A stretch of 64,000 nucleotides of DNA, from the IMG/VR virus record IMGVR_UViG_3300032030_000060; one strand, 5' to 3'. This DNA is from an uncultured virus (IMG/VR IMGVR_UViG_3300032030_000060). Lineage: Duplodnaviria; Heunggongvirae; Uroviricota; Caudoviricetes. A program made the position numbers and the translations under genes. Positions 16,461-17,585 of the stretch are shown here, one piece after another. A model generated the notes under the pieces. The model saw only the letters and a program-made list of their open reading frames with translations. It did no database searches and was not told the origin of the DNA. Each line of letters begins with the position of its first letter. The stretch's first letter is position 1.

Positions 16461-17060
16461 GTTGAAACAAGATAGGCGGGCTTGTAGTAAACGAAATCTT
16501 ACGGATAAAGTTAGGTTTAGAAGCCGAACACTATATCAAGAATTTCCAACAAGTGCCGCCTCACGAGTTGGATTTTTCTTTTATAGGGGTTCGGCTTTTC
16601 TTGTTTTCAACACACCAAGCCAAAAGCAAGAAACCAGTCTTAGGCTGACGGTATTGTAAGGTAAGGGCTTTGACTACAGAGTTAATTGTGGTGTTCGTGA
16701 TGAGTTTCCAAAACTACGTGTAGTTATAGGAGTGCTGACGGCAGAAATTAAACGCTCGACCTCTATAACACGAACTGAAATAAACAAACCCTCCGAGGCA
16801 TCACCGTAAAGTCGGTGAGGGGAAAGCGCGCAAGAGGGAGGATAGGTGGAATAAGAAGTCCTGCGCAGGGGTGGCAACGTACCCGAAGATTCTGAAAGCA
16901 AGTTGCATTTGCCACAATGCTAACGAGCCGAGTTAGGAAACCTCTGAAAAATCTGGCATAACTCGAAATAACTCCCCAATCCCATCAAGTAATTAAAGTT
17001 TACTTGTGGGTAAGGGGAAATTATGGAATCACGATATTGTTTCCTTTCCCCCACAGGCAT
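16461..17060 (+). ncRNA. putative ~600-nt structured RNA / leader upstream of DUF559 nuclease
   Basis: Many nested stems, GC-richer than flanks, no credible ORF, promoter directly upstream. Confidence 0.55.
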
Positions 17061-17099
17061 GATGTTATTTTAAGTACGATAATAATTTAACTACAATAT

Positions 17100-17585
17100 A
17101 TGAAAAGAAAGATATATACTTCGCTTGATGACTTTAAGTTAAAGCATATTGATGTTATAAGTTATACTGAATTAAATGATGATTTAGTAGAATGGATTAA
17201 CGAAAACTCGATAAAGTTGCTTATTAACAGAAACAATGCAGAAATGCTTGCTGGTGAAGAATTGAAAAAATATTTCAATGAAGTTCACGAACAAGTATAT
17301 TTTAGAATTAGTGGTCATTCTTATTTTCTTGACTATTACTTGCCTAAATATAAATTGGCGATTGAAATAGATGGAAGTTACCACAAAATTCGTAGAGTTG
17401 AAGACAAAGAACGTGACAAGATGTTTAACGATATTGGAATAAGAACTATACGCATTAATTCTAAAGATGTTTTGCGTGGTGACTTTATCAAGTCACTCAA
17501 AGAAAAACTTATTCCTAAAAAGCGTAAAAAGAAAACGAAACATAAGCATAAAGGTTTTAGTGAATATGCAAATTGGAATACTTAA
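17100..17585 (+). CDS. DUF559/Vsr-like PD-(D/E)XK endonuclease
   Basis: EQ...YFLDYY...LAIEIDGSYH...D.ERD...GIRTIRI. Confidence 0.85.
   Translation: MKRKIYTSLDDFKLKHIDVISYTELNDDLVEWINENSIKLLINRNNAEMLAGEELKKYFNEVHEQVYFRISGHSYFLDYYLPKYKLAIEIDGSYHKIRRVEDKERDKMFNDIGIRTIRINSKDVLRGDFIKSLKEKLIPKKRKKKTKHKHKGFSEYANWNT

Follow-up and report, generated by a model that had tools for sequence, protein, structure and literature searches.

The window analysed here, a stretch of 64,000 nucleotides recorded as IMGVR_UViG_3300032030_000060, represents most of the genome of a tailed phage whose host is a rumen Bacteroidota. Its genes include those for a terminase, RecE/RecT, an O-like initiator, DnaC, a primase-helicase, a clamp and several methylases. 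The nearest relatives are IMG/VR and metagenome contigs, and the runs containing the stretch are by record mostly from bovine or sheep gut. The region of interest, flanked by a PAPS-reductase-like gene and a methylase gene, is composed of a promoter, a leader, a structured RNA cassette named X-A and a gene coding for a DUF559 nuclease (Table 1). The cumulative GC skew of the window tracks gene direction and has no inflection at this region.

Table 1. Features of the leader/cassette/nuclease region (window positions)
Feature	Position	Strand	Basis
Bacteroidota-type promoter (TTTG, 20 nt, TATCTTTG), left edge of the exchanged block	16425..16456	+	sequence
Predicted leader RNA switch, ~150 nt	16461..16611	+	folding, alignment
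Leader closing stem	16461-16472 with 16599-16611	+	folding
5' segment a, beginning with the 6-nt hypervariable code	16474..16484	+	code variety, covariation
Leader long hairpin, about 80 nt	16519-16599	+	folding
Terminator-like hairpin (16545-16572) and U-tract	16545..16582	+	folding
a*, in the hairpin loop, complementary to a	16550-16561	+	pairing
Non-coding structured RNA cassette X-A, 456 nt, in an exchangeable slot	16612..17067	+	relatives, covariation, no shared ORF
Best-supported internal hairpin of X-A	16801..16818	+	compensatory pairs: L006 3, L253 3, L250 1
3' terminal element of X-A	16968..17055	+	common to otherwise dissimilar cassette types
DUF559 (Vsr-like / EDxHD-type) nuclease, passenger	17100..17585	+	Pfam E 7e-9, above cut-off
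AT-rich translation-start linker, reused between genes; right edge of the exchanged block	17586..17613	+	identity to L002/L003 stops at 17613, followed by other genes

Elsewhere in the window, a dUTPase (13289-14389, plus strand) is preceded in its reading frame by a cysteine-rich N-terminal region of ~240 amino acids resembling a homing-nuclease remnant, Pfam covering residues 241-365 only. A tRNA gene with anticodon TTG (Gln) by sequence (18620-18691, plus strand) lies 3' of another Bacteroidota promoter and terminator. A second free-standing homing-type endonuclease (phrog_559, E 4e-72) is encoded at 25642-26550 on the minus strand, and a similar gene is found immediately 5' of the promoter in the related record L002. 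The AT-rich segment 57600-60100 (GC 0.28) has no ORFs of 100 amino acids and, close to 58549 on the minus strand, contains short purine repeats, with the strongest C skew of the window just 5' of it; it could be a lytic origin or a packaging/control region. In two relatives of the window a gene is lengthened by an insertion that begins with what we take to be an intein start motif, namely a methylase of 652 amino acids compared with about 290 (L006 439-2397) and a helicase (L003 3267-6224).

Comparative material was drawn from 80 metagenome and 80 genome DUF559 loci, most of them distant matches to the catalytic core. Upstream DNA was inspected for 29 and 21 loci, and the remainder was screened by BLAST/nhmmer only. 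Chance matches obtained in pattern searches were discarded (L211, 1/14; 16/18 of another set; L254, L280, L283 and L089). From the set of 18 matches, L240 was retained and L234 was noted: an intergenic region of an unrelated-looking phage, it ends in the same kind of G-tract hairpin switch as the cassettes described below.

The initial annotation had proposed a structured RNA of ~600 nt with its own promoter. The promoter is visible in the sequence as TAnnTTTG at 16449 and TTTG at 16425, in agreement with the Bacteroidota consensus, a type not included in the sigma-70 scan; promoters of the same type precede the leaders of relatives. The structure is also upheld, the 646-nt region folding better than its shuffled versions (z -3.44; 0 of 20 shuffles as good). 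All nine pairs of stem arms that had been named are present at their positions, and compensatory changes among relatives back most of these stems: TCACCG/CGGTGA has double changes in three of six relatives and GTTCGTG/CACGAAC has one double change and one break, both in L006. Stem GTTATAG/CTATAAC did not hold, being broken or deleted in five of six relatives. No known RNA family was recognized by Infernal: with Rfam 15 only the tRNA reaches the gathering score in the window, searching up to E 10 adds just three chance rows, and 12 related loci yield tRNA alone.

What had to be revised is the unity of this RNA: its leader and its cassette are independent modules, each recombining without the other. 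Records L002 and L003 share 16449/53-17613 with the window at 96-98% identity between differing neighbours, and L051 has the same promoter-to-linker block at this level of identity, also among different genes. The translation-start linker recurs inside L001. Since the edges of the block are a promoter and a reused linker, and its parts are found separately, the block is not one mobile unit despite its first appearance.

The leader is distinguished by a code of 6-9 nt in its 5' segment, with 28 distinct codes among 31 leaders. Its hairpin loop carries a complement of at least 6 nt to the 5' segment in 31 of 34 leaders, compared with 7 of 72 other promoter-like sites of the window, the first figure being favoured by the gathering of leaders by pattern and eye. 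Among 16 aligned leaders, the covariation of a with a* is 0.50 versus 0.20 in shuffled alignments (reached in 0 of 500 shuffles), and 96.5% of the cells of the a:a* helix pair, with 19 double-change cells (equalled in 0 of 500 shuffles). The a:a* pairs with double change, counted alone, are not significant (56 of 500 shuffles). RNAalifold recovers the helix unprompted. The terminator-like hairpin with its U-tract (16545-16582) was missed by a simple terminator scan.

Folding of successive prefixes of the window leader gives a:a* a pairing probability of 0.9-1.0 until the U-tract and of 0.0 in the full leader, although the choice of the longest complement means that pairing just past a* is partly built in. 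Blocking segment a in the calculation is predicted to let the terminator hairpin form. When full leaders are folded, a:a* stays at a probability of at least 0.55 in 6 of 31 (0.58 in L054). The pseudoknot suggested previously is kept as a covarying pairing between 5' segment and loop, but it looks like an alternative, mutually exclusive fold more than a coexisting knot. In these models the leader folds like a terminator/antiterminator switch.

We infer, by analogy with the c4 RNA of phages P1 and P7, that the leader acts as a same-strand antisense attenuator. In the nascent transcript, a would pair with a* and block the terminator hairpin, so that polymerase would read through. The completed leader would refold into the long hairpin that shows a* in its loop, and this displayed loop could capture segment a of new transcripts in trans, allowing the terminator to form. 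The outcome would be a dose-dependent negative feedback whose specificity, in immunity or incompatibility, is set by the 6-9-nt code, as in c4. A search of the window with the 11-nt segment a, allowing up to 1 mismatch, returned a single match and no second copy as target, unlike the P1 and P4 antisense systems, which possess further target copies; shorter or less exact target sites may exist. Genes coding for Rha, KilA-N or weakly matching AntA proteins are present in leader-driven operons. Read in this way, the leader applies a known regulatory logic in a form not described before.

Cassette X-A was found in 7 distinct related records, L001 being 99.9% identical to the window. The alignment of these 7 sequences, with a mean identity of 92%, has double changes in 14 of 117 predicted pairs, a covariation signal that comes mostly from L253 and L006. 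No ATG-initiated ORF of at least 25 amino acids is common to the 7 aligned sequences, and the short ORFs of the minus strand are missing in L253. The folding energy of X-A alone does not stand out (z -1.57); over 22 cassettes the z values spread from +0.9 to -3.1, so that energy alone proves little. In the long hairpin at 16968-17024, the G-tract 17014-17017 can pair alternatively with a downstream C-tract. At 16710-16717 the opposite strand has a candidate promoter, which was discarded because it is not general and L006 has lost it. In L253 and in the truncated record L286, X-A lies behind a different leader, beside an integrase gene, and the cassette also forms a moron-like unit with an integrase on one side and a repressor on the other.

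Transcription of X-A is hinted at by RNA-library contigs. Parts of 16481-17048 are covered by contigs in 4 of 4 rumen runs, taken from 4 studies; these 4, out of 24 runs, were chosen for containing part of 16300-17700, and their contigs were filtered. The same runs provide one contig over part of the nuclease gene and one over a relative of the methylase, with almost no cover of the PAPS-reductase gene, the upstream genes or the region beyond 18873, a distribution left out of the argument because of run selection and contig filtering. One X6 contig joining 15539 to 17592 was set aside because it has just 23 nt on one side. RNA libraries can contain DNA, and the contigs have no strand, ends or level, so they give a hint of transcription only.

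X-A had no match in Rfam, nor did the element in BLAST searches of annotated phages and plasmids; in 401 genomes of the family of a Prevotella MAG only a 22-nt chance match appeared. No description of this RNA was found in the literature, including the covered part of the candidate phage structured-RNA catalogue PMC10690425. Six short motifs had no match in the covered part of its supplements; the rest may list such RNAs without naming them. The cassette represents a large phage RNA family that is uncatalogued as far as these searches go.

In relatives, the slot after the leader carries other structured RNAs, nothing, or a gene for a tandem winged-helix protein named W. About ten cassette sequence types of 270-460 nt are distinguished, BLAST joining members within types only. 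They share a 5' motif and a 3' long hairpin whose G-tract pairs upstream or downstream. In the type B cassette, 28 of 51 pairs have double changes in a loose alignment of 5 sequences. The RNA-pattern search identified 13 leader contigs, 10 with a non-coding cassette and 3 with W; the 10 cassettes are followed by an intact DUF559 domain (5), a deleted one (1) or none (4). Every cassette inspected is located between the leader and the first operon gene or a further promoter. Genome G407 carries two cassettes; in L004 the same type of gene is driven by a leader without cassette. Searches of annotated phages with X-B and of plasmids with X-C, X-D and X-G found none, and X-E had only a 31-nt chance match in phages. 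The cultured gut phage PV4-TP1, of LoVEphage type, has a leader and an unannotated cassette of ~300 nt between repressor and early promoter (L226 6001-6420) and offers a practical experimental system.

Protein W is about 250 amino acids long and has 77 relatives. It occupies the same slot as X: between one shared upstream gene and a DUF559 gene, L011 has W where L055 has X-E, and the same recombinase/HTH neighbourhood surrounds W in G405 and X-A in G407. Its model is a tandem winged helix (pLDDT 91), for which the structure search gave only generic matches (best Z 6.3), no specific solved structure or Rep protein being listed, although a related Rep structure may exist. W has weak PHROG matches to replication initiators (E 1e-4 to 5e-4) and no match in a profile comparison with the initiator of the window. 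With leave-one-out scores above 10 bits, 14 of 23 W loci have a DNA site of ~25 bp at the 3' end of the gene, wherever the stop codon lies; 21 of 21 non-W slots are without it (maximum 4.0; background maximum 6.0). The idea that cassette ends share this site was ruled out by the PWM scan. A conserved site in this position suggests, from sequence, that W acts on its own adjacent DNA, as a Rep protein on its origin.

W was not found in the window, nor in 5 of 5 X-bearing records by a search run without a positive control, and none was found in annotated phages and plasmids. Of 401 bacterial genomes, 9 have W, and in one case DUF4248 and HU-like genes lie next to it. Records L256-L263 hold chromosomal W homologues, most with the same 3' DNA site and with no evident leader.

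Our leading guess on the role of the cassette, and a weak one, follows the alternative put forward in the initial annotation and is that X is an RNA-primed origin standing in for W and its site. X-A would be a Rep-less origin resembling ColE1 RNA II, used by a plasmid-like or secondary replicon. At the 3' G-tract, the read-through transcript of ~600 nt would form an R-loop, RNase H would cut the primer and copy control would come from the leader. The feedback leader, the alternation of X and W in one slot, the winged-helix model of W and its weak initiator matches, its own 3' site and the failure to find it in X-bearing records are consistent with this proposal. So are a hairpin followed by an (A/T)A-GGG motif 33-89 nt from the cassette end in 10 of 19 cases, an RNase H gene immediately 3' of X-A in G408, the finding that 4 of 5 near-complete genomes have no tyrosine integrase, and a transcript length near that of RNA II (555 nt; PMC4555960, in part).

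Several findings do not fit an origin. There is no conserved opposite-strand promoter, TAnnTTTG occurring in the first 300 nt of 4 of 31 leaders versus about 7 expected in a consensus scan. Plasmids have no match to four cassette types or to W, and these phages have their own replisome. One genome (G407) has two cassettes, X is found in integrase-bearing phages (G408, LoVEphage) and cassettes precede antirepressor genes. RNase H is encoded in just 2 of 5 genomes, W lacks both a specific structure match and a profile match to the initiator of the window, and the ratio of G4 to C4 runs (2.8 versus 2.1) is near background. The broadest version of the proposal, in which a phage superfamily of 270-460-nt RNAs functions as protein-free RNA-primed origins, swappable with W and its origin, both dose-controlled by a same-strand antisense attenuator with a 6-9-nt incompatibility code, we regard as doubtful.

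About as likely as the RNA-primed origin is a cis-acting platform for read-through or processing of the operon, where the cassette would be a put/EAR-like processive antiterminator RNA or a processing/Rho-termination zone metering toxic genes such as those of nucleases, antirepressors and methylases. Its constant location behind the leader and ahead of the first gene or a further promoter agrees with such a role, as do the Rha, KilA-N or nuclease genes often found 3' of it, and the long imperfect 3' hairpin could be a site of RNase III type. With 270-460 nt, the cassettes are far above the size of put (about 70 nt). Moreover, L004 drives the same kind of gene from its bare leader, the LoVEphage cassette is followed by a further promoter and not directly by a gene, and such a platform would not explain why a DNA-binding protein with its site takes the place of the cassette.

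It appears rather unlikely that the cassettes are stable trans-acting RNA cargo (a protein decoy, an sRNA or an anti-defence RNA) exchanged with W by recombination at shared linkers only. RNA-library contigs from 4 studies span leader and cassette, X-A occurs as a moron-like unit and the many unrelated cassette sequences would suit diverse cargo. However, the types share 5' and 3' structural elements and always lie behind the feedback leader; no target or partner was found, and nothing on the amount, ends or strand of an RNA can be read from contigs.

The DUF559 nuclease is a 161-amino-acid protein with a basic tail. Among 104 candidates, 75 are its relatives. Residues E48, D78, E89, D91, H95, D102 and D106 are invariant in 40 of 40 aligned proteins, leaving the putative catalytic residues intact; their correspondence with the EDxHD family was judged by alignment, not by superposition. 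The model (pLDDT 88.8) has as top PDB row the catalytic domain of I-Bth0305I (3r3p; prob 1.00, E 0.01, rmsd 3.3). The free-standing ORF has no NUMOD match in Pfam, no HNH or RuvC domain and no match to an intron model.

The initial annotation had coupled the RNA to this nuclease, as in HEARO/omega elements, and had held that an RNA found independently of the nuclease would speak against it. The nuclease gene lies 3' of X-A in 4 of 7 records, and L006, L250 and L253 have X-A without it. In L053, a nuclease with 93% protein identity (90% at the DNA level) follows a leader with 74% identity and an unrelated cassette (39%). Both results separate the two partners. Other close relatives of the nuclease are found 3' of a protein gene (L011, L059, L060) or of a bare leader (L004). 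The nuclease is tied to no single RNA. An RNA-guided or RNA-partnered mobile nuclease of OMEGA/HEARO type is therefore very improbable, even with the block shared at 96-98% by the window, L002, L003 and L051 and with the basic tail and the putative catalytic residues. The fold is Vsr-like; the 5' end is conserved; the variable code of 6-9 nt is internal and compensated in cis, and hence not a flank-derived guide; and the block, bounded by a promoter and a translation linker, is recurrent in its genomic position. The least credible possibility, a group I intron with an EDxHD homing endonuclease like I-Bth0305I, has in its favour the nuclease fold and an AT-rich inverted repeat flanking the ORF (17059-76 / 17579-96), and against it the lack of an Rfam intron match up to E 10, the absence of an interrupted gene, the own promoter, the uncoupling of RNA and ORF and the alteration of the 3' repeat arm in L003 and L005.

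The nuclease would rather be a free-standing passenger of homing type. HNH genes, which take the same place after W, are found 3' of it in 4 of 4 loci tested, indicating that the third position takes different nucleases. The DUF559 subfamily very often follows leader-driven slots, so a looser functional link between the two is conceivable and may exist. In L005 (3001-3157), a DUF559 gene with a clean internal deletion lies behind an intact type B cassette; there the nuclease decays and the RNA stays. Also behind type B cassettes and in the same slot, L015 (1145-2521) and L016 (2860-4218) encode a DUF559 domain within a protein of ~455 amino acids whose C-terminal part has no assignment.

We consider it probable that the region consists of three separable modules, leader, cassette X-A and nuclease, at the head of a phage transcription unit, with the leader as attenuator and the nuclease as passenger. 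This removes a false lead, the RNA-guided DUF559 nuclease not being supported, and reveals an uncatalogued covarying family of large phage RNAs together with a coded leader switch that is widespread among Bacteroidota phages, gut phages of LoVEphage type among them. Because some alleles have an RNA where others have a protein gene with its DNA site, function can be tested directly by comparing such pairs. If the cassette is an origin, it would define a new class of RNA-primed replicons: phages would have arrived on their own at a solution like that of ColE1, and close relatives would show the exchange of a gene for an RNA. Genetics in Bacteroides and Prevotella would then gain copy-control parts that are orthogonal and programmable through the code. 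If it is not, the leader by itself is still a candidate for an immunity system and a source of orthogonal attenuators.

Comparison with known systems places the three modules apart. The put RNA of phage HK022 is a promoter-proximal antiterminator RNA that replaces a protein gene in relatives. X-A is likewise a promoter-proximal phage RNA replacing a protein gene; it differs by its much larger size and by the replaced protein, a DNA-binding winged helix with its own site instead of an N-like antiterminator. With HEARO/omega RNAs of IscB and TnpB the region shares only the layout, a structured RNA 5' of a compact nuclease gene. OMEGA systems are defined by obligate nuclease pairing and a flank-derived guide (PMC13565253, in part); the region has neither, nor an IS200/605/607 context, and its nuclease has another fold. 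Homing endonucleases of the I-Bth0305I, EDxHD Vsr-like type, with their described NUMOD region (PMC3239194, in part), resemble the nuclease in catalytic fold, invariant E, D, D, H and D residues and phage location. Unlike I-Bth0305I, the protein has 161 amino acids without the N-terminal NUMOD/HTH region and is encoded outside an intron or intein.

The W allele, with its leader switch, winged-helix gene and conserved site at the gene end, is reminiscent of antisense-controlled replicons that combine rep and origin, to which pT181, ColE2 and Inc18 belong. Such an arrangement is described for pSA564/pSK41 and pIP501 (PMC8129170, in part). The differences are that pairing takes place on the same strand, that W is assigned to no Rep family and that the X allele has no protein. 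ColE1 RNA II is a structured transcript of 555 nt that operates free of Rep (PMC4555960, in part); the leader and X-A would likewise form a Rep-free, structured non-coding transcript of ~600 nt, its transcription only hinted at, whose 5' part would be regulatory and which has a G-tract close to its 3' end; at some loci an RNase H gene is nearby. Unlike ColE1, there is no antisense promoter on the opposite strand, no sequence or Rfam similarity and no plasmid match, and the carriers are phages with their own replisome.

The closest parallel of the leader is found among phage antisense systems, to which the CI RNA of P4 and the CA RNA of N15 are also related. It differs from c4 in having no Rfam match, in belonging to a different phylum, in lacking a second target in the window, in the predicted use of an intrinsic-terminator switch instead of a translation block and in being followed by a large RNA cassette or W. 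In the c4 RNA of P1 and P7, of 77 nt, complementary sequences placed in loops determine heteroimmunity (PMC12197685, in part). The leader is similarly a small phage RNA with complementary same-strand segments in loops that vary between phages, its long hairpin has about 80 nt, antirepressor genes often lie downstream and differences of a few nucleotides could set specificity.
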